DNA of 60,994 nucleotides. It comes from Parcubacteria group bacterium GW2011_GWD2_38_11. Lineage in GTDB: Bacteria; Patescibacteriota; Minisyncoccia; Moranbacterales; GWC2-37-73. Made by a program: the position numbers and the translations under genes. Below the pieces are notes generated by a model, which was not told the origin of the DNA, made no database searches, and was given only the letters and a program-made list of their open reading frames with translations. This document shows, in pieces, positions 731 to 14,159 of this stretch; the stretch's first letter is position 1; every line of letters begins with the position of its first letter. The stretch spans positions 1 through 60,994 of the forward strand of contig LBTZ01000001.1 in NCBI GenBank assembly GCA_000992325.1, given 5' to 3'.

Positions 731-1288
731 ATGAAAAAAATATTAGCAATAATTCCAACTCTTGCGCTCGTGTTTGCTTTTTCAACATCATTTGCCTTTG
801 CATCTGATCGAAACAATTCCTGTTGCAATGACTCACATGACAAGAAAGTAACATGCTGCCCATCAGTTGAAATTGAAAATACTAATGATGCAAAAACTTA
901 CAACAATGTCACGTCTTTTTCAGACACCGGACTTAACAAGATTTTATCCAGTTTTGGAAAAAAGACTCATTCATCTCGTCATCATGATGAGGACAATGGA
1001 CTCACGGGTATAGCCAAAATCCTTTCTGGCGCTGCAGAATCATTTGCAGGAACTGAGACCTATGCCAATGACACAAGAATTGTTGTTGACGAACCAGAAA
1101 AAGGAAAAGTTGAAATCGAAAACACGAACGAAGCACTCACCACTAACAATGTGACTTCGTCTGCAAGCACAGGTTACAACTTTATTTCTGCTAAGGGCAT
1201 TAAAAGTGTTATCAAAACTGGATATGCAGGTTCACAATCCAGTGCAATAACAATGGTTAACAGCAATGTGATCAAGATCACAGATTAA
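731..1288 (+). CDS. Small secreted repeat protein (signal peptide, CC..CC motif, two Asn-rich repeat modules)
   Basis: 185-aa ORF. N-terminus MKKILAIIPTLALVFAFSTSFAFA looks like a signal peptide. A CCNDSHDKKVTCC motif is followed by two copies of VEIENTN(D/E)A.T.NNVTS...TG.N.I. The same module occurs in the next ORF. Confidence 0.6.
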   Translation: MKKILAIIPTLALVFAFSTSFAFASDRNNSCCNDSHDKKVTCCPSVEIENTNDAKTYNNVTSFSDTGLNKILSSFGKKTHSSRHHDEDNGLTGIAKILSGAAESFAGTETYANDTRIVVDEPEKGKVEIENTNEALTTNNVTSSASTGYNFISAKGIKSVIKTGYAGSQSSAITMVNSNVIKITD

Positions 1289-1371
1289 TCATTCAATTGA
1301 CGGGAAAAAGAGGGTGGCTTTCTCCACCCTCTGCTCATCCCCTCGGTGACCATTATCTTATAGACAAAAAA

Positions 1372-4173
1372 ATGAAACGTAAGAATTCAAAACAAAAAAA
1401 AGCATCCAGCAAAATGATCAATGAAAAAATAGTTCCGTTGATGATTATTTTTGTTATGATTTTTTATCCACTCCTCTTCCCTCTTTGGATCATTCAAGCA
1501 GAGGAAGAATTAGTTGCAACAACAAACGCAAGCGAAGACATCAAGCCAGCACCCATAGAAAAAGAAGATCCGCCTAAGGACGCTGAAGAAGAAGCGCCAG
1601 CTGAGGAACCCACAAAAGTGGAGGAAAAGATTGTCGAAGAAACAGTGAGCGAAACAGAAACCAATTCAAATCAGACAACCCAAGCAGAAATTTCAGCAGA
1701 TTCAGCCACCAATGATAATAGCATTAACCAAAATCAGATTAGCGACAGTGAAACAGCTGAAGAATCAATTGATTTGAATCTGCCCGAACAGCAACAAGAA
1801 GAAAGCACCCTTGAAAATGAAACTGCCCCAATTCAACAAGATCCAGCAAATGTTTGCTGCGATGTCGACAACAATTGCTGCTCAGATGCTGCAATCGAAA
1901 ATGACAACGACGCAGAAATTTCCAACACCGCAGACTCAATTTCCAATACTGGAAATAATTCTATTAACGATTCACAAAATACAAACACTGATGAAACAAC
2001 AGATAATGACAATGATGATTCCAATGAGTCCACTAGCGATCAATCAACCAACAATGAAACCGAAGATGAGTCGGCTATAAATTCAGAATTAGAAAACGGA
2101 GAAATGTCCACTGGCAATGCGATCGCCGACAACACCATCGTAAATGAGGCGAACACAAATATTGTCAGTGAAAATTATATTGACTCCGTCATAAACATCA
2201 CCGGCGATGAAAGTTATGACATCAATTTACTTGAGCAATTTCAAAACTTGCTTGGAGAAGCTGAGAAATTGAACACTGCCAATCTGGAAGCGCTCACTAT
2301 TGAAAATAACAACACTGCCAACATCACAAACGATATACAGATAATCGCAAATTCTGGTGAGAACACCATTGCTGCAAGTGAAGAAACTGAAGATGCTCAA
2401 ATTGCCACTGGCGATGCAACCGCCGACAGCAACATTATAAATATCATCAACCGCAACTTGATTGGCAACACTTGGATTTTCTCCGTCATTAATGTATTGG
2501 GAAATTGGGTGGGCGATCTCATTGTGCCAGGAGAAGGGCTGCTCGAAACTCCAACTTCTCAACTTGCAACTAATCTGGAAATTATCAATGAAAATGAAGC
2601 AACCATTGTCAACAACAGCAACACCAACGCGGACTCCGGTGGAAATTTGATCGCGGATGCAGAAAATTCCTTAATATCAACCGGAATAACTTCGTCATCA
2701 TCAGAAATAACAAACGTCGTAAACACAAATATAATTCAAAATAACTGGTTTGTTTTGCTCATAAATAATCTTGGAGTATGGTCTGGAAAAATTTTAGGAT
2801 GGGATGAAGCTGACGACGAGAAGAGCAATGTGTATGAATATAATTTCGAAACAAATACTGAAGAAGATTTTCTCACATCAATGTATTCGTTTTTATCAAT
2901 TCATAATATCAATCAAGCAACAATAACAAATAATGCCAGTGCCAGTGCAACTACTGGCAACAATTCAATAACGGGAGGTGGAGAAAACGCAACCATACAA
3001 ACAGGAAATGCATCCGCTAGCACCAACATCGTCAATATTGCAAACACAAATATAGTCGGCAACAATTGGATATTTGCAATTGTGAATGTAATGGGATCCT
3101 GGACTGGAAACACCGTCTTTGCATATCCCGATCTTGCCCTATCTATTAGCGATGGAATCCAACAAGTCAATTCTGGAGGTTTGTTGACCTATACTGTCTC
3201 CTATGAAAATATTGGCCAAGCAAATTGCGATGACGCTCAAGTTTCAATTGAACTTCCCGATACCTTAACTTATCAATCCAGCAGCGCACAGCAATTATCC
3301 AATGCGAAAAATTCTGCCCACATTTGGTCACTAGGAAAAATAAATGCCGGAGAAAAAAAATCATTTGCATTTACGGTGATTGCAAACAATAATGGCGAAA
3401 CTGCTCCAACCAGCGTCAGCGCCACCATTTCAACAAACACCAAGGAAACAGAACTTCTCAACAACTCTGCCTCGGATGAAACAATAATTTTATCCAAACA
3501 AATGACTAGCAATGAACTTGAAGAATTTGAAGAATTTGATCCTGATTCACACTTAAAAATATCCAGACCTGCGATGGATTATCCATCTGTGCCGACCGGA
3601 AACATCGTGGAGCAATTTATATATGTCGAGAATGACGGAGATGACCCACTCGGCAATATCGTTGTCACGGAAGCAGTCATAAATCCAAATGATGAAATAG
3701 TTGGAAAATATTTATGGAACATACCAGTGTTAAACAAAAATGAAAAAGTTATAATCACCTATCAATTGATGATAGGCGCTGATGCAGCAGCCGGAACATA
3801 TACCTATCGCGCACGCGGCGTGGCAGTAAACTCAATAGGCGAAAAAGTAACCAGCAACAAAGCCTTAAACAACCTCATCGTTTTTGCAATGTATTATAAC
3901 AATAAACAAGATGCTACTGATTTTTCGCCGACAAGCATCAACACTAGTGATATTATAAATTATGACAACAAAAATATTTTAGGTGCGGCAACAACCAATA
4001 ACAAAGCTGCTCCACTCTGGCTTCTAGTAACAGCTATTCTCATATACACACTTACGGGAGTTGCCTGGCTTCTGTCAAAAAAACTCAATCTGGAAACAAT
4101 TACATTGAAAGAAAACTTGCTAAAAAATAGAACCGATTGGGGAACTGTTCATAAAATTTATCCTAGGGAATAA
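1372..4173 (+). CDS. Large cell-surface protein: N-terminal TM/signal, acidic low-complexity region, CC..CC motif, repeated IEN.N..A...N....(S/T)G.N modules, two DUF11-like Ig-fold repeats, C-terminal TM anchor
   Basis: The ORF track gives 1297..4173 (TTG start). The ATG at 1372 (MKRKNSKQKK...) precedes a hydrophobic segment. CCDVDNNCC is followed by at least 5 Asn-rich modules, each ending in a (W/Y)I(F/D)..(I/L)N..G.W.G segment. LTYTVSYENIGQA and IVEQFIYVENDGDDPLGNI resemble DUF11 repeats. C-terminal hydrophobic helix PLWLLVTAILIYTLTGVAWLL. Confidence 0.65.
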   Translation: MKRKNSKQKKASSKMINEKIVPLMIIFVMIFYPLLFPLWIIQAEEELVATTNASEDIKPAPIEKEDPPKDAEEEAPAEEPTKVEEKIVEETVSETETNSNQTTQAEISADSATNDNSINQNQISDSETAEESIDLNLPEQQQEESTLENETAPIQQDPANVCCDVDNNCCSDAAIENDNDAEISNTADSISNTGNNSINDSQNTNTDETTDNDNDDSNESTSDQSTNNETEDESAINSELENGEMSTGNAIADNTIVNEANTNIVSENYIDSVINITGDESYDINLLEQFQNLLGEAEKLNTANLEALTIENNNTANITNDIQIIANSGENTIAASEETEDAQIATGDATADSNIINIINRNLIGNTWIFSVINVLGNWVGDLIVPGEGLLETPTSQLATNLEIINENEATIVNNSNTNADSGGNLIADAENSLISTGITSSSSEITNVVNTNIIQNNWFVLLINNLGVWSGKILGWDEADDEKSNVYEYNFETNTEEDFLTSMYSFLSIHNINQATITNNASASATTGNNSITGGGENATIQTGNASASTNIVNIANTNIVGNNWIFAIVNVMGSWTGNTVFAYPDLALSISDGIQQVNSGGLLTYTVSYENIGQANCDDAQVSIELPDTLTYQSSSAQQLSNAKNSAHIWSLGKINAGEKKSFAFTVIANNNGETAPTSVSATISTNTKETELLNNSASDETIILSKQMTSNELEEFEEFDPDSHLKISRPAMDYPSVPTGNIVEQFIYVENDGDDPLGNIVVTEAVINPNDEIVGKYLWNIPVLNKNEKVIITYQLMIGADAAAGTYTYRARGVAVNSIGEKVTSNKALNNLIVFAMYYNNKQDATDFSPTSINTSDIINYDNKNILGAATTNNKAAPLWLLVTAILIYTLTGVAWLLSKKLNLETITLKENLLKNRTDWGTVHKIYPRE

Positions 4174-6166: not shown

Positions 6167-7387
6167 ATGCATAGCAGAAACTTCAAAGCGGGCAGTTCGC
6201 GCCCAACGCGCTCAAGAGCGCCATTCCAAGGCGGACAAAAAAATTCATTCAATAACCAAGGTGGTCGCAAAAAACGTTTTACTGGGTCATATATTGATAT
6301 CAGTCGTTTTATCAATAAGGCTGCCCCAATTGTAGAAGCTGAGGCCTATATCCCAGACACTATTTTTGCTGATTTCAAAATAGAAGAATCAATAAAGAAA
6401 AATGTTATTGCTCGTGGATATTTACACCCAACGCCAATTCAAGATAAAACCATCCCCCACATTCTCGAAGGAAAAGATTTGATTGGACTAGCCAACACTG
6501 GCACAGGAAAAACTGGAGCATTCTTGCTTCCGATGCTTGATAAGATTATCAAAAACCCAAGTGAAAAACTTTTGGTCGTGGTTCCAACTCGCGAACTAGC
6601 TATTCAGATTCAAGAAGAATTCCGCGCTTTTGCTGCTGGACTTCGCATCGGATCAGTGGTGGTGGTTGGTGGTGCCAACATTCGAACTCAAATCGAATGT
6701 CTTCGCTCACGCTACAATGTTGTGATTGGAACACCAGGACGACTCAAGGATTTGATCCAACGCAAAAATCTTCATCTCAACACTTTTGCAAATGTGGTTC
6801 TTGATGAAGCAGACAGAATGCTCGATATGGGATTTATGCCTGATGTGCGATATTTGCTTTCACTTGTTGCCCCAAAAAGACAGACTTTATTTTTCTCAGC
6901 AACACTAGCGCCAGAAATTGAAAAATTGATTCAAGAATTTTTGGTTGATCCAATTAAAATTTCTATCAAGACACGAGAAACTTCTGCCAACATTGATCAA
7001 GATGTTGTGCGTGTCAAACCGGGAGAAGATAAAATTGAAGTCTTGCAAGATCTTTTGCGCAAAGCAAATTTTTCAAAAGTTTTGATTTTTTCTCGAACCA
7101 AACACGGAGCTGAAAAACTTTCAATCATTTTGAGCAAAAACGGATTCAAAGCTCAATCAATTCACGGAGACAAATCACACGCCAAAAGACAAAAGGCTTT
7201 GAAACTTTTCAAAGAAAATTATGTTGAAATTTTGGTAGCAACCGACGTTGCTGCTCGCGGATTGGACATTCCAAATGTTTCGCACGTGATCAACTTTGAT
7301 GTGCCTGCGACGTATGATGATTATGTTCACCGTATCGGACGAACCGGTCGCGCCGGCAAAACCGGAACAGCTCTGACTTTTGTGTAA
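6167..7387 (+). CDS. DEAD-box ATP-dependent RNA helicase
   Basis: Q motif GYLHPTPIQ, motif I ANTGTGKT, PTRELA, DEAD (VLDEADRM), SAT, HRIGRTGRAG. The N-terminal Arg/Gly-rich tail starts at the ATG at 6167; the ORF track's upstream start at 6128 is less likely. Confidence 0.9.
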   Translation: MHSRNFKAGSSRPTRSRAPFQGGQKNSFNNQGGRKKRFTGSYIDISRFINKAAPIVEAEAYIPDTIFADFKIEESIKKNVIARGYLHPTPIQDKTIPHILEGKDLIGLANTGTGKTGAFLLPMLDKIIKNPSEKLLVVVPTRELAIQIQEEFRAFAAGLRIGSVVVVGGANIRTQIECLRSRYNVVIGTPGRLKDLIQRKNLHLNTFANVVLDEADRMLDMGFMPDVRYLLSLVAPKRQTLFFSATLAPEIEKLIQEFLVDPIKISIKTRETSANIDQDVVRVKPGEDKIEVLQDLLRKANFSKVLIFSRTKHGAEKLSIILSKNGFKAQSIHGDKSHAKRQKALKLFKENYVEILVATDVAARGLDIPNVSHVINFDVPATYDDYVHRIGRTGRAGKTGTALTFV

Positions 7388-7415
7388 ACAAATTTCAAAA
7401 ATTGCATACAAAAAA

Positions 7416-7448
7416 ACAAGACTTCATTTCGATAGTCTTGTTTTTTTA
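7416..7448. terminator. Bidirectional terminator
   Basis: Hairpin acaagact-tcatttcgat-agtcttgt with flanking A7/T8 runs, between convergent genes. Confidence 0.7.
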
Positions 7449-7463
7449 TTTCCTAACCAATAA

Positions 7464-9233
7464 TCAAGATTCGCCAATTCCCTTGCTTTGGGCTTGCCAT
7501 AAGCTATGATAAACACCTTTCTTGGCTAAGAGCTCTTTATGATTGCCCTGTTCAACTATTTTTCCTTTTTCCAAGACAACAATATTATCAAAATCAACAA
7601 TCGTTGAAAGCCTGTGCGCAATAACAATAGTGGTAATGTTTCCTTTGGAAAGCTTTTCTATTTCTTCCTGTATTATCTTTTCTGATTTTGTATCAAGTGA
7701 GGCCGTGGCCTCATCAAAAATCAAAATTACAGGATCCTTAATTAACATTCTGGCAATTGCTACGCGCTGCTTTTCTCCACCCGACAATTTCACACCACGC
7801 TCGCCTACTATAGTCTCATAACCTTCAGGCAAATCCTTTGAAATAAAATTATGAATGTTTGCCATCTTGGCGACGCGCTCAACATCCTCTTTGGTTGCAT
7901 CGGGCTTTCCATATGCGATATTATGAAAAATTGTATCATTAAACAAAGTTGTATCTTGCGCCACAATACCAATATGCGCGCGCAAATCCTGCTGCTTAAG
8001 ATCTCTAATATCCACTCCATCAATAATGATTTTTCCACCACTAACATCGTATAATCTTAGCAACAATTTTGGAATGGTTGATTTTCCCGAGCCAGAATAT
8101 CCGACCAATGCAACTCTGTTTTTAAATGGTATAGACAACGATATCCCATTTAGCACCTCCCTTTCGCCAGAATAACCAAAACTCACATTTTCAAATTCGA
8201 TACTGCCAGTCCATTTTTCCAATTTTCTGGCATCAAGTTTATCCTGAATAGTATTTTTTTCCTTAAGCAATTTCATCATTTCATCAACATCGGCAAGCCC
8301 CTCTTTAATAGCGCGATAAGTAAAACCAAGAAATCCCAATGGCACAGCTATGCTTGCCAAATAAGTCGTGACCAGAACGAAATCTCCGATTGTCGCATCC
8401 CCATAAATATAGTGATTAACCGCTAGCACCAGGATAGCGGCCAATCCTGCAGTAATAATCAAACCCTGTCCCATATTCAAATTGGCCCCAGACCTAATAG
8501 ATTTAATAAACATACCAGACCACTTCCTTAGTTGTGTATCATATCTCTTATATTCATATTGTTCATTGGTAAAATATTTTACAGTATCATAATTAAGAAG
8601 TGCATCTATAGACTGACCGGTTGCCTTATCATCAAGTTTATTTGTTTCTAGCAGCAGCTGCTGTCTACGCTCAGTAATATAAATAGTAAAGGCAACATAT
8701 ACAATCACAAAAACCAAAAATGTGACCACGAACGACAAGGGGAAAAGTGCAATAAAAACAGCACCAACAAAAATGATTTGAATAATTGTCGGAACAACAT
8801 TGAATGACATAAACATAAAAATAGTTTCCAAGGCGTTTGTTCCGCGTGTTATCTTGCGAGATACCCTTCCCGTTGAACGATCAGCGTGAAAAGACGAGGG
8901 CAAAGAAAGTAAATGCTGGAAAACTTCTAGCGAAACCAATCTTCTAATATCGGCTTGCACCTTGGCAAAAACATAGTCCTTCATACCATCTAACACATTT
9001 CCACCCCATTGCAAGGCAAAAAACAGCACCAATAAATACGCTATCACAACAATAGAGGCTGAGGTTCCTTGGGTCACCAGCAAATCAATCAGTTTTTTCA
9101 TCACATAAGGCCCAGCCACGACCAACAATTTCGAGACAATAACCAAAAGAATGCTGAGGAAAATCCGACCCCTAAACATTCTGATGTATGGCATCAAATC
9201 CCGAATATTTATTTGTTGCATTTTCTTTTTCAT
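7464..9233 (-). CDS. ABC transporter, fused permease/ATPase (MsbA/ATM1-like exporter)
   Basis: 589 aa. N-terminal six-helix TMD. Walker A GYSGSGKST, signature LSGGEKQRVAIAR, Walker B ILIFDEATASLD. Confidence 0.9.
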   Translation of the reverse strand: MKKKMQQINIRDLMPYIRMFRGRIFLSILLVIVSKLLVVAGPYVMKKLIDLLVTQGTSASIVVIAYLLVLFFALQWGGNVLDGMKDYVFAKVQADIRRLVSLEVFQHLLSLPSSFHADRSTGRVSRKITRGTNALETIFMFMSFNVVPTIIQIIFVGAVFIALFPLSFVVTFLVFVIVYVAFTIYITERRQQLLLETNKLDDKATGQSIDALLNYDTVKYFTNEQYEYKRYDTQLRKWSGMFIKSIRSGANLNMGQGLIITAGLAAILVLAVNHYIYGDATIGDFVLVTTYLASIAVPLGFLGFTYRAIKEGLADVDEMMKLLKEKNTIQDKLDARKLEKWTGSIEFENVSFGYSGEREVLNGISLSIPFKNRVALVGYSGSGKSTIPKLLLRLYDVSGGKIIIDGVDIRDLKQQDLRAHIGIVAQDTTLFNDTIFHNIAYGKPDATKEDVERVAKMANIHNFISKDLPEGYETIVGERGVKLSGGEKQRVAIARMLIKDPVILIFDEATASLDTKSEKIIQEEIEKLSKGNITTIVIAHRLSTIVDFDNIVVLEKGKIVEQGNHKELLAKKGVYHSLWQAQSKGIGES

Positions 9234-12104: not shown

Positions 12105-12365
12105 TCAAACATCATCAACAATTCTTCCGTATTTTGTAATGAGACTACCGCGTTTGGTTCTGAAATCATATTCAGCAATGAAAAGTCCAGTAAGCGTATA
12201 GCCAAGGAGCTTAACACGCTCATTTTTCAAAAACTTCGCATCATTTATTCTATGTGGATAATACTCACCTTCAATCTTGAAATACATTTTACCATATTGA
12301 GCATGTAGTTTATCAAATTCTTCCCCGGTAGGTCCATCTTCAATATCGACTCTCACTAGACACAT
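12105..12365 (-). CDS. Hypothetical protein (86 aa)
   Basis: ORF with a strong SD (aaaaggaggatgtt-ATG) at the internal Met of track ORF 12105..12392. No recognisable motif. Confidence 0.5.
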   Translation of the reverse strand: MCLVRVDIEDGPTGEEFDKLHAQYGKMYFKIEGEYYPHRINDAKFLKNERVKLLGYTLTGLFIAEYDFRTKRGSLITKYGRIVDDV

Positions 12366-12379
12366 AACATCCTCCTTTT

Positions 12380-12502
12380 TTAGTTGCCCCATCCGGCAAC
12401 GGGTTTAGGTTTAATTTCTTTATTGCACTTTTTGCAAAAATATTTGCCATGCAAACGATAAACTATTTCGCCACATTTAAGGCAAGTAATATAGCCATTC
12501 AT
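12380..12502 (-). CDS. Small zinc-ribbon protein (40 aa), not in the ORF track
   Basis: Hand translation gives MNGYITCLKCGEIVYRLHGKYFCKKCNKEIKPKPVAGWGN. It has two CxxC pairs and the SD aaaaggggg-taaat-ATG. The stop overlaps the SD region of the next ORF. Confidence 0.5.
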   Translation of the reverse strand: MNGYITCLKCGEIVYRLHGKYFCKKCNKEIKPKPVAGWGN

Positions 12503-12971: not shown

Positions 12972-13133
12972 CTCCTCCCCCAAAATTTCTCGCGAGTACA
13001 CAGAGAAATTTCTCCTCCAGAGCCTGGGTTTTCAAAAACGCAAAATCATTTGCGTTTTTGAAATACCCTTCGATTCCTGCGCAAGCAAGATAATAAAACA
13101 GACATCTTAAATGATGTCTGTTTTATTATCTTG

Positions 13134-13204
13134 CACGGGCGGCAGGAATCGAACCCACGCCAACGGTTTTGGAGACCGACGTACTACCACTATACGACGC
13201 CCGC
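13134..13204 (-). tRNA. tRNA-Trp (anticodon CCA)
   Basis: Hand-folded cloverleaf: acceptor GCGGGCG/CGCCCGU, D-arm GUAU..GUAC with GG, anticodon loop CUCCAAA, T-loop UUCGAUU, discriminator G. No CCA is encoded. Confidence 0.85.
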
Positions 13205-13238
13205 ATTTATAAAGGCGAGCAAAGCCCGCCCTTAAAGA

Positions 13239-13403
13239 TTATTTCATTTCCTTATGTTCAGTGTGCTTTCTGCAATGATTGCAGAATTTGTTTAGTTCAA
13301 GCTTTTCTTTGATCTTCTTTTTGTTACGAGAAGTGTAATAGTTAATTTCTTTGCATTCACTGCATTTAAGTTTAACTAGGTTTTCCTTTGTCTTTGTCGC
13401 CAT
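13239..13403 (-). CDS. rpmG: 50S ribosomal protein L33 (54 aa), not in the ORF track
   Basis: Hand translation gives MATKTKENLVKLKCSECKEINYYTSRNKKKIKEKLELNKFCNHCRKHTEHKEMK. This shows the typical L33 CxxC...CxxC layout and the KLEL.KFC motif. Confidence 0.9.
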   Translation of the reverse strand: MATKTKENLVKLKCSECKEINYYTSRNKKKIKEKLELNKFCNHCRKHTEHKEMK

Positions 13404-13579: not shown

Positions 13580-13848
13580 AGCCGTTGACCGGAATCGGAC
13601 CGGTGACCTCATCCCTCATTTGCACCTCTATTTTTATATTGCATCTATTGTAGAGGATTAGACTGTATATTAAGCATATCCATTAGACTTAGCTTCCCTT
13701 GTCAGTCGTTCGGGCGTAATTTAGCTTACGCCACGGTCTGAGCCAAATGCTAGGCCTTTAACCGTTATTCAGGATTCGCCACTCAGTTTCCCGAGCGGTG
13801 GGCAATGAGTTCACCAAGGATGTGCTCTACCAACTGAGCTACAACGGC
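13580..13848 (-). tRNA. tRNA-Thr (anticodon GGU) interrupted by a ~196-nt intron between positions 36 and 37
   Basis: Exon 1 (13848-13813) is GCCGUUGUAGCUCAGUUGGUAGAGCACAUCCUUGGU. Exon 2 (13616-13580) is AGGGAUGAGGUCACCGGUCCGAUUCCGGUCAACGGCU. Joined, they fold into a full cloverleaf (acceptor GCCGUUG/CAACGGC, anticodon stem CAUCC/GGAUG, loop UUGGUAG). Confidence 0.8.
13617..13812 (-). ncRNA. Probable group I intron (no ORF) in the tRNA-Thr anticodon loop
   Basis: It follows U36 and ends in G. P2-like hairpin CCGCUCGG-GAAA-CUGAGUGG. P4 CGGU/ACCG. P6 GGCGUAA/UUACGCC. P7 GACUG/CAGUC. AAUAUACAGUC resembles the conserved J8/7-P7 'S' element AAGAUAUAGUC. ACGACUGACAAGGG resembles CAGAGACUCGACGGG of cyanobacterial tRNA introns (recalled from memory). 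Confidence 0.65.
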
Positions 13849-13897
13849 AACATTCACTTTTTATTCAAACATATACCTTCTCTTTTATTCTACGCGG

Positions 13898-13980
13898 TGG
13901 GCAGTGAGGGATTCGAACCCCCGAAGGCGTAAGCCGTGTGGTTTACAGCCACATCCAGTTGACCGCTTTGGTAACTACCC
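13898..13980 (-). tRNA. tRNA-Tyr (anticodon GUA), long variable arm
   Basis: Acceptor GGGUAGU/ACUGCCC, anticodon stem UGUGG/CCACA, loop CUGUAAA, variable arm CGGCUUACGCCUUC, T-loop UUCGAAU. Confidence 0.85.
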
Positions 13981-14087
13981 GAATAAAATGTAAAATAGAA
14001 ATCTCAAAATGAAAAATTATGGAAATCGTCGCAAAGCGACTCATTAATTTTACATTTTGATTTTTTAATTTTCAATTTGCATTTATG

Positions 14088-14159
14088 AGCCACCCACCGG
14101 ATTTGAACCGATAACCTACTGTTTACAAAACAGTAGCTCTACCGTTGAGCTAGGGTGGC
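14088..14159 (-). tRNA. tRNA-Thr (anticodon UGU)
   Basis: Acceptor GCCACCC/GGGUGGC, D-arm GCUC..GAGC, anticodon stem ACUGU/ACAGU, loop UUUGUAA, T-loop UUCAAAU. Confidence 0.85.

Follow-up and report, generated by a model that had tools for sequence, protein, structure and literature searches.

A probable compact group I intron without an open reading frame in the anticodon loop of a Patescibacteria tRNA-Thr(GGU), with relatives in phage capsid genes

Reviews place the group I introns of bacterial tRNA genes in cyanobacteria and in alpha- and beta-proteobacteria, where the hosts are tRNA-Leu, tRNA-fMet, tRNA-Ile and tRNA-Arg (PMC4033280, PMC8450103), and we found no mention of tRNA-Thr as a group I host in these two reviews. 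Lui et al. 2021 briefly mention group I introns in some tRNAs of the candidate phyla radiation (PMC8172020), and tRNA introns of Patescibacteria are named in the title of Nakagawa et al. 2025 (bioRxiv 10.1101/2025.07.03.662931, cited in PMC12641178). These reports concern the same phylum and the same kind of element as the one described here, in genes that evade standard tools owing to their introns; a prior description of the intron family that we call class A below is possible. Here we analyse a stretch of 60,994 nucleotides (nt) of contig LBTZ01000001.1 from Parcubacteria group bacterium GW2011_GWD2_38_11, referred to as the window, whose DNA derives from a Rifle groundwater metagenome sample (PRJNA268031). 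A tRNA-Thr(GGU) gene on its minus strand is split by an insert at 13812..13617, which very probably is a compact group I intron without an open reading frame (ORF), located between U36 and A37. This reading is supported by at least 54 loci interrupted at the same site, by covariation in the helices and in P9.0, by an internal guide that tracks the exon, and by an exact empty site in relatives. The comparative analysis establishes the structure and the exact boundaries of the intron, while its splicing chemistry would be that of group I introns.

The interrupted gene spans 13848..13580 and consists of a 36-nt 5' half, the 196-nt insert and a 37-nt 3' half. A preliminary description, drawn from the letters of the window, had recognised these parts without stating the strand, and our analysis bears it out. 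The 5' half provides the acceptor strand, D arm, 5' anticodon stem and loop residues UUGGU, and the 3' half contributes AG, the 3' anticodon stem, variable loop, T arm (ACCGGUCCGAUUCCGGU), acceptor strand and discriminator U. Across the two halves, all 17 pairs of the acceptor, anticodon and T stems form. Joining the exons yields a 73-mer that ARAGORN calls tRNA-Thr(ggt), a cloverleaf with anticodon GGU, A37 and the anticodon loop UUGGUAG. With its intron option, ARAGORN reports a 196-nt intron in the precursor; ARAGORN at default settings and Rfam at gathering thresholds missed the split gene and found only the neighbouring tRNAs. CCA is not encoded, and hence normal end maturation must follow exon joining.

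The insert belongs to a family. With each species represented by one genome, we looked for 5' halves resembling tRNA-Thr in which position 37 is not A, matched each half to the best downstream 3' half, and obtained at least 119 loci, whose interrupted genes fall into three classes, A, B and C; public genome-bin labels were taken as written. Class A comprises at least 54 loci, each a tRNA-Thr(GGU) gene interrupted directly after position 36, with inserts of 176–214 nt and one of 266 nt. Its members share a core that reads GAAUCCCGAAUWACGGUUAA, P5, AAGACCGUGGCG, the P6 loop, CGCCCGAACGACUGACAAGGG, P8, AAGAUACAGUCUAG, P9 and GGUGUAARCG. The records are labelled Patescibacteria (Kaiser-, Nomura-, Taylor- and Vogelbacteria, Paceibacteria, Saccharibacteria) or carry no label, except for one labelled Bdellovibrionales (L044), whose intron is identical to that of L080. 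The closest class A introns, among the matches listed, are only about 70% identical to that of the window. A covariance model built from 47 class A relatives with the window left out, R1, nevertheless gives a sole match in the 61-kb window, 13820..13613(-), which is full length, has the exact intron ends and scores 165.5 bits (E 8e-52, E-values of this model being rough). R1 also recovers four class A members outside its training set and has no match in 541 kb of control loci. That tRNA-Thr is no classical host, as had been remarked earlier, accords with the two reviews cited above; in the genomes scanned here, however, tRNA-Thr(GGU) is a common one, in class A and class C alike.

Does the insert have the architecture of a group I intron? 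Pairing was counted, P3/P7 pseudoknot included, on an alignment of the window and 47 distinct class A introns (A1). Across these 48 sequences, 93.5% of the cells form standard pairs, compared with 79.1% after shuffling of the 3' letters, the observed value being reached in 0 of 500 shuffles, and with 32–42% when the partners are slid by 1–3 columns. Changes on both sides are found in 29 of the 50 pairs, including three of four in P5 and four of five in P9, in addition to those in Table 1. Both pairs of P9.0 covary, GC/AU and CG/UA, with 14 and 20 double changes. Comparison backs the helix order P3-P4-P5-P5'-P4'-P6-P6'-P7-P3'-P8-P8'-P7'-P9. The hairpin with the GAAA loop, P4, P6, P7 and P9 of the preliminary description are all present, and so is its intron start after U and end in G: every one of the 48 sequences has U.G at the 5' splice site and G as its last intron base. 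Beyond the exon pairs of P1, the next two pairs of its extension covary (GU/UA/GC and GC/AU), and the loop of P2 is a GNRA tetraloop throughout class A. The segment AAUAUACAGUC agrees with the conserved J8/7-P7 element AAGAUAUAGUC at 9 of 11 positions, as had been noticed, and the family consensus AAGAUACAGUC at 10 of 11. No ORF of 20 or more amino acids (aa) lies inside the insert.

The innermost helices behave differently. P3 (3 bp), P4 (5 bp) and P7 (5 bp) are essentially invariant in class A, the P3 pairs being invariant or U.G, and are thus uninformative for or against the structure. P7, which forms the pseudoknot with P3 and has the same sequence in all copies, is GACUG/CAGUC and stands one double change from the canonical GACUA/UAGUC; a second scan of phage contigs, anchored at J3/4-P4 outside P7, yielded no P7 variants. 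P3 had been drawn as UCCUG/CA(A)GGG. Family comparison supports a core of CCY/GGG, 3 bp in length, and we dropped the extension, in which a U-A pair clashes with the first pair of P8 and a G-C pair across an AA bulge has no comparative backing. In one relative (L113), P3 is one pair longer through a coordinated change. A convincing P10 pairing of the 3' exon with the guide region was not seen. Of the 24 sequences whose P2 has a GAAA loop, the window among them, 21 have an 11-nt-type receptor in P8; of the 24 with the GYRA loops GUAA, GCAA or GCGA, none has it. This split follows two clades and is confounded by phylogeny, with few independent events. The location in the anticodon loop, the set of helices and the coupling of the P2 loop to the P8 receptor would fit subgroup IC3, to which the intron may belong.

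The exact extent of the insertion is given by relatives that lack it. Among metagenome contigs scanned for the predicted spliced junction, three (L269, L266 and L220) contain an uninterrupted tRNA-Thr(GGU) that is identical to the joined exons of the window at 73 of 73 positions, odd T-loop included. These contigs are syntenic with the window by BLASTN, with 74–88% identity in protein genes and spacers and higher values in tRNA genes, and share with it the genes for EF-Ts, a PSP1 protein, a TPR protein, tRNA-Tyr, rpmG and tRNA-Trp. In these contigs nothing separates the counterparts of window positions 13616 and 13813, the interrupted gene occupies the orthologous slot of the cluster, and a fourth syntenic relative (L211) also lacks the insert. 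The insertion is therefore exactly 196 nt long and polymorphic among close relatives.

The T-loop UCCGAUU (13590-13596(-)), pointed out as unusual in the preliminary description, has C55 instead of the near-universal U. The same C55 recurs in the four orthologues without intron and in L113, as well as in tRNA-Phe genes, unrelated to these, from the same phylum (L006, L007, L016, L029, L082, L108, L114), while the remaining three tRNAs of the window have the usual U55. This recurrence indicates that C55 is genuine and tolerated, not an error. In a wetland metatranscriptome (run X22, contig 9), a 137-nt fragment with adapters at both ends corresponds to window positions 13649-13792; it lies wholly inside a relative's class A intron, with 8 mismatches, and fits excised intron RNA or precursor alike.

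Phages also carry relatives of the intron: 24 IMG/VR contigs contain the invariant core motif, a second motif added further contigs, and R1 detects 37 class-A-like copies in phage contigs at 75–145 bits; ARAGORN found no tRNA at any of the six phage loci searched. In L140 (IMGVR_UViG_3300020570_000137), three copies lie in a gene (6187-8079(+)) that follows the portal and scaffold genes, and the same holds for L147. Removal of these 184–190-nt introns (6280-6469, 6746-6935 and 7569-7752) produces a single ORF of 442 aa; all three are located between codons, each ending in G exactly where the frame resumes. The ORF matches the PHROG major head protein family over two of the junctions (E 1.1e-5). 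A second contig, L158, encodes an 88%-identical capsid protein (1234-2656(+)) that is uninterrupted at the three sites and has one intron further downstream, which confirms the junctions in L140. Homologous capsid genes of five other contigs (L132, L138, L144, L146 and L209) are interrupted at still other positions. The guide of the phage copies varies with the exon (GGU/GCC, GCU/GGC, GAU/GUC), and the outer pair of P4, A-U in the tRNA class, is U-A in most phage copies, the inner pair being U-A versus G-C. In L133 and L126, the canonical CGGGGGAA...AAUCCCG replaces CGGUUAA...AGACCG. Given the guide changes, the compensated P4 and the canonical P4-P5 of these two contigs, the phage sequences support real splicing of the class A family and a link to canonical tRNA-type group I introns. 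The copies in L133 (4399-4603(+)) and L126 (2615-2804(+)), which recur in L142 and L149, combine the class A P7/P3' core (CGAACGACUGACAAGGG) with that canonical P4-P5, and seem to stand midway between the compact class and the ordinary group I introns of tRNA type.

In conjunction with what is established for group I introns, we propose the following model for removal of the insert. In the precursor, the last exon bases GGU would pair with the guide GCC as the ribozyme core folds, and the GAAA loop of P2 would probably dock on its P8 receptor. The attack after U36, which the U.G wobble holds in P1, would then come from a free guanosine bound in P7. The terminal G of the intron, placed by P9.0, would next replace the guanosine cofactor, and the freed 3' end of the 5' exon would attack after this G, joining the exons so that A37 completes the loop UUGGUAG. 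The tRNA would afterwards undergo normal processing of its ends and receive CCA.

Several observations weigh against a group I intron that splices in this way. Searching with the Rfam group I model RF00028, as the preliminary description had recommended, returned no match to the window at E<=10, either for a 601-nt stretch or for a 231-nt stretch under the most permissive filters (gathering threshold 50 bits). Six further class A loci (L012, L039, L010, L077, L080 and L037) had no match at E<=1, and L053 scored 21.6 bits. P3 is only 3 bp long, and P3 and P7 can pair in every copy without varying, so that the pseudoknot rests on identity to the consensus, not on covariation. Searches of RNA runs gave metatranscriptome contigs of relatives only and no spliced read from the window organism; the relatives' contigs show unspliced junctions, or intron-less forms indistinguishable from intron-less genes. 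Splicing may need a protein cofactor, and a second intact tRNA-Thr(GGU) may exist elsewhere in the genome, outside the 61-kb window. We read the RF00028 miss as a sensitivity gap of that model because R1 matches canonical group I introns at full length and phage members bridge to the canonical P4-P5. These cross-matches, to introns of classes B and C and to one of ribosomal RNA type, are weak (13–28 bits), and the alignment of R1 to L029 is colinear over P1, P2, J3/4-P4, P8, J8/7-P7 and P9.

What else could the insert be? A group I-derived intron with a trimmed core, folding only with the help of a host protein (a maturase-like or synthetase-like cofactor), is unlikely. The very short P3, a J7/3 of 4 nt, the lack of peripheral domains, the blindness of the curated model RF00028 and sizes (176–214 nt) at or under that of the Azoarcus intron, reportedly the smallest well-studied self-splicing intron at 205 nt (Tanner and Cech 1996), would suit such dependence, whereas the joiners and helices of the catalytic core are all conserved and the tetraloop-receptor pairing is kept. 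Moreover, the occurrence of class A in contexts as unrelated as a bacterial tRNA gene and phage capsid genes argues against reliance on one host factor. It is very improbable that the tRNA gene is dead, with an insertion that stays in place and with ACC and ACU decoded by another tRNA-Thr. Although splicing lacks RNA support from the relatives' contigs, a tRNA-Thr(UGU) lies 240 bp away, the T-loop has its unusual C55 and the genome is seen only through the 61-kb window, both halves are intact and identical, C55 included, to the uninterrupted gene of relatives. The gene sits in its orthologous slot, and in at least 54 species-level genomes both halves are perfectly preserved on either side of an insert whose structure is conserved and shows compensatory changes.

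The metagenomic origin of the window might raise the suspicion of an assembly artefact or chimeric join, but the 269-nt interrupted gene is identical in four assemblies (L120–L123) and homologous inserts are present in at least 54 other genomes, which leaves that explanation with almost no probability. Equally little speaks for an intron of another type, whether group II or a bulge-helix-bulge tRNA intron spliced by proteins. The insert does interrupt the anticodon loop immediately beside 37/38, the canonical position for introns of archaea and eukaryotes; its own site, however, is fixed by the empty-site alignment at 36/37, the host is bacterial, a length of 196 nt and the group I helix order suit neither type, and Rfam returned no group II or other match to the insert. 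A group I intron without an ORF, as the preliminary description had proposed for this site, thus agrees with the same-site family, the covariation, P9.0, the guide changes and the empty site.

The polymorphism and the phage relatives suggest a recent gain or loss of the intron. Since it encodes no homing endonuclease, movement by reverse splicing or recombination is likely. More tentatively, and with somewhat greater odds of being wrong than right, we speculate that class A represents an undescribed minimal lineage of group I introns, 176–214 nt long and thus smaller than that of Azoarcus, with a 3-bp P3, invisible to RF00028 and devoid of a homing endonuclease. This lineage would currently pass between two kinds of site, phage major-capsid genes and, in Patescibacteria, the tRNA-Thr(GGU) anticodon loop.

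The other two classes met in the scan carry canonical group I introns. Class B consists of about 30 loci in which tRNA-Phe(GAA) is split between U33 and G34 by introns of 219–252 nt that score 75–83 bits on RF00028, have P1 GGACU/GGUCC and, on joining of the exons, give tRNA-Phe(gaa) by ARAGORN. These loci, which start TTTCGGTCC, were considered as tRNA-Thr introns and rejected: the terminal-G and U.G rules together with ARAGORN assign them to tRNA-Phe(GAA) with an intron at 33/34. Their labels are Moranbacteria, Magasanikiibacteriota and Patescibacteria, some TPA bins being labelled Gammaproteobacteria or Bdellovibrionales. Class C comprises five loci of alphaproteobacterial type, one of them from a cultured species, with introns of 204–267 nt, rich in G+C, at the same 36/37 site of tRNA-Thr(GGU); one (L075) reaches 44.8 bits on RF00028, and R1 matches the class weakly, at 16–17 bits. 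Outside Patescibacteria, too, tRNA-Thr(GGU) thus serves repeatedly as host. A group I intron of canonical appearance (GUAGAGACUA...GAAGAUAUAGUCC) also turned up in an apparent ribosomal RNA gene of an unclassified bacterial bin (L051, 5958-6168(+)), where the class A model scored 27.8 bits.

In the window, the split gene is the only tRNA-Thr(GGU) of a cluster with the conserved order tRNA-Thr(UGU), tRNA-Tyr, tRNA-Thr(GGU), rpmG and tRNA-Trp, upstream of which lie the genes for the TPR protein, the PSP1 protein and EF-Ts. tuf is absent between the tRNAs and rpmG (13580-14159(-), 13133-13403(-)). After tRNA-Trp, secE and nusG are not recognisable, and the next ORF on the same strand (12105-12392, 95 aa) has no Pfam match.

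Table 1. Coordinates of the split gene, the parts of its insert and the neighbouring genes in the window, followed by introns of classes C and B in other records (record handle before the position; class B has about 25 loci more).
Feature	Position	Strand	Evidence or remark
5' exon, tRNA positions 1-36, ends with anticodon GGU	13813..13848	-	GCCGUUGUAGCUCAGUUGGUAGAGCACAUCCUUGGU; 17/17 with 3' half; ARAGORN on joined exons
3' exon, positions 37-73, starts A37 G38, T-loop UCCGAUU, discriminator U	13580..13616	-	AGGGAUGAGGUCACCGGUCCGAUUCCGGUCAACGGCU; ARAGORN
Probable group I-type intron without ORF, class A family, 196 nt	13617..13812	-	starts GAACUC, ends AAAUG; model R1, covariation, empty site
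P1: exon GGU and intron GA with internal guide UUGCC; U36.G wobble at 5' splice site	13801..13815	-	three exon pairs 48/48
P2: 10-bp hairpin, GAAA tetraloop	13777..13800	-	9/10 pairs with compensatory changes
P3 5' strand CCU	13771..13773	-	partner GGG 13696-13698
P4 (ACGGU/ACCGU) enclosing P5 (GGCC/GGCU), A-rich J4/5 and J5/4	13733..13765	-	P5 covaries
P6 hairpin GGCGUAA/UUACGCC	13713..13732	-	4/6 pairs compensated, including closing pair G-C to A-U
P7 5' strand GACUG, expected guanosine-binding helix, after J6/7 CGAAC	13703..13707	-	partner CAGUC 13661-13665
P3 3' strand GGG, after 4-nt joiner ACAA	13696..13698	-	family comparison
P8 hairpin with 11-nt-type GAAA-tetraloop receptor (GCUAAG...UAUGC)	13672..13695	-	5/5 pairs covary
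J8/7 and P7 3' strand, AAUAUA-CAGUC	13661..13671	-	9/11 against group I consensus AAGAUAUAGUC
P9.0 (AU 13658-13657 with AU 13619-13618) enclosing P9 CCUCUA/UAGAGG (13656-13625)	13618..13658	-	covariation
Terminal intron G (omega G) at 3' splice site	13617..13617	-	G in 48/48 family members
tRNA-Thr(UGU)	14159..14087	-	ARAGORN default / Rfam
tRNA-Tyr	13980..13896	-	ARAGORN default / Rfam
rpmG (ribosomal protein L33), 54 codons, between split gene and tRNA-Trp	13403..13239	-	Pfam E 2.7e-18
tRNA-Trp	13204..13133	-	ARAGORN default / Rfam
Class C	L089 2470-2759	+	Crenalkalicoccus roseus YIM 78023, cultured
Class C	L075 6033-6308	-	
Class C	L046 1524-1824	+	
Class C	L005 4046-4335	+	
Class C	L115 2936-3274	-	
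Class B	L015 3991-4303	-	
Class B	L065 1676-1989	-	
Class B	L067 1729-2042	+	
Class B	L001 2415-2736	+	
Class B	L007 7248-7538	+	

What is the relevance of such an intron? With tRNA finders and Rfam both missing the split gene, genomes of this kind seem to be without tRNA-Thr(GGU), and surveys based on RF00028 undercount the group I introns of Patescibacteria and would miss class A. If active, class A introns, at 176–214 nt, would rank with the smallest group I ribozymes found in nature, and the family offers about 50 natural variants, together with the phage relatives, for studies of minimal ribozymes. The exact polymorphism at one tRNA site and the relatives in capsid genes make a clean case for studying how group I introns without an endonuclease move; should the reading as a mobile minimal lineage prove true, the intron could mark links between phages and their Patescibacteria hosts. 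The finding rises above the routine through its compact, database-invisible family, its clean polymorphism and its relatives in phage capsid genes.

The closest well-studied relative in form is the intron of Azoarcus tRNA-Ile. Like it, the intron of the window is small, bacterial and without an ORF, is inserted in the anticodon loop 3' of the anticodon, and is built of P1 to P9 without P5abc or P7.1/7.2, with a U.G at the 5' splice site and a terminal G. Both have GNRA loops on P2 and P9 and a receptor in P8, and for Azoarcus the docking of loop and receptor is known from the crystal structure. The two differ in the host, here tRNA-Thr(GGU), in the 3-bp P3 with its 4-nt joiner after P7, in P4-J4/5, which is ACGGUUAA in class A and UCGGGGAA in Azoarcus, and in the last pair of P7, G-C in class A and A-U in Azoarcus. 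Unlike the Azoarcus intron, class A is invisible to RF00028 and has members down to 176 nt.

Class C shares with the intron of the window the tRNA, the site, the guide core UUGCC and the GAAA loop on P2, and differs from it in size (204–267 nt), in its richness in G+C and in its canonical P3-P7 sequences. The group I intron of tRNA-Leu lies at position 34/35. The introns of cyanobacterial and plastid tRNA-Leu(UAA) and of cyanobacterial tRNA-fMet are likewise group I introns in the anticodon loops of bacterial-type tRNAs (Paquin et al. 1997; Biniszkiewicz et al. 1994, as cited in PMC8450103). They occupy other tRNAs and another insertion position, are longer, and match RF00028; the presence/absence polymorphism of the tRNA-fMet intron, which has been read as lateral transfer, resembles that of the window intron. 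Among phages, orf142 of Staphylococcus phage Twort contains three group I introns, of subgroup IA2 with extra helices. The capsid gene of L140 and L147 is similar to it in holding several short group I introns without ORFs in one phage gene; unlike the Twort introns, however, these phage copies share the class A core with the intron of tRNA-Thr.

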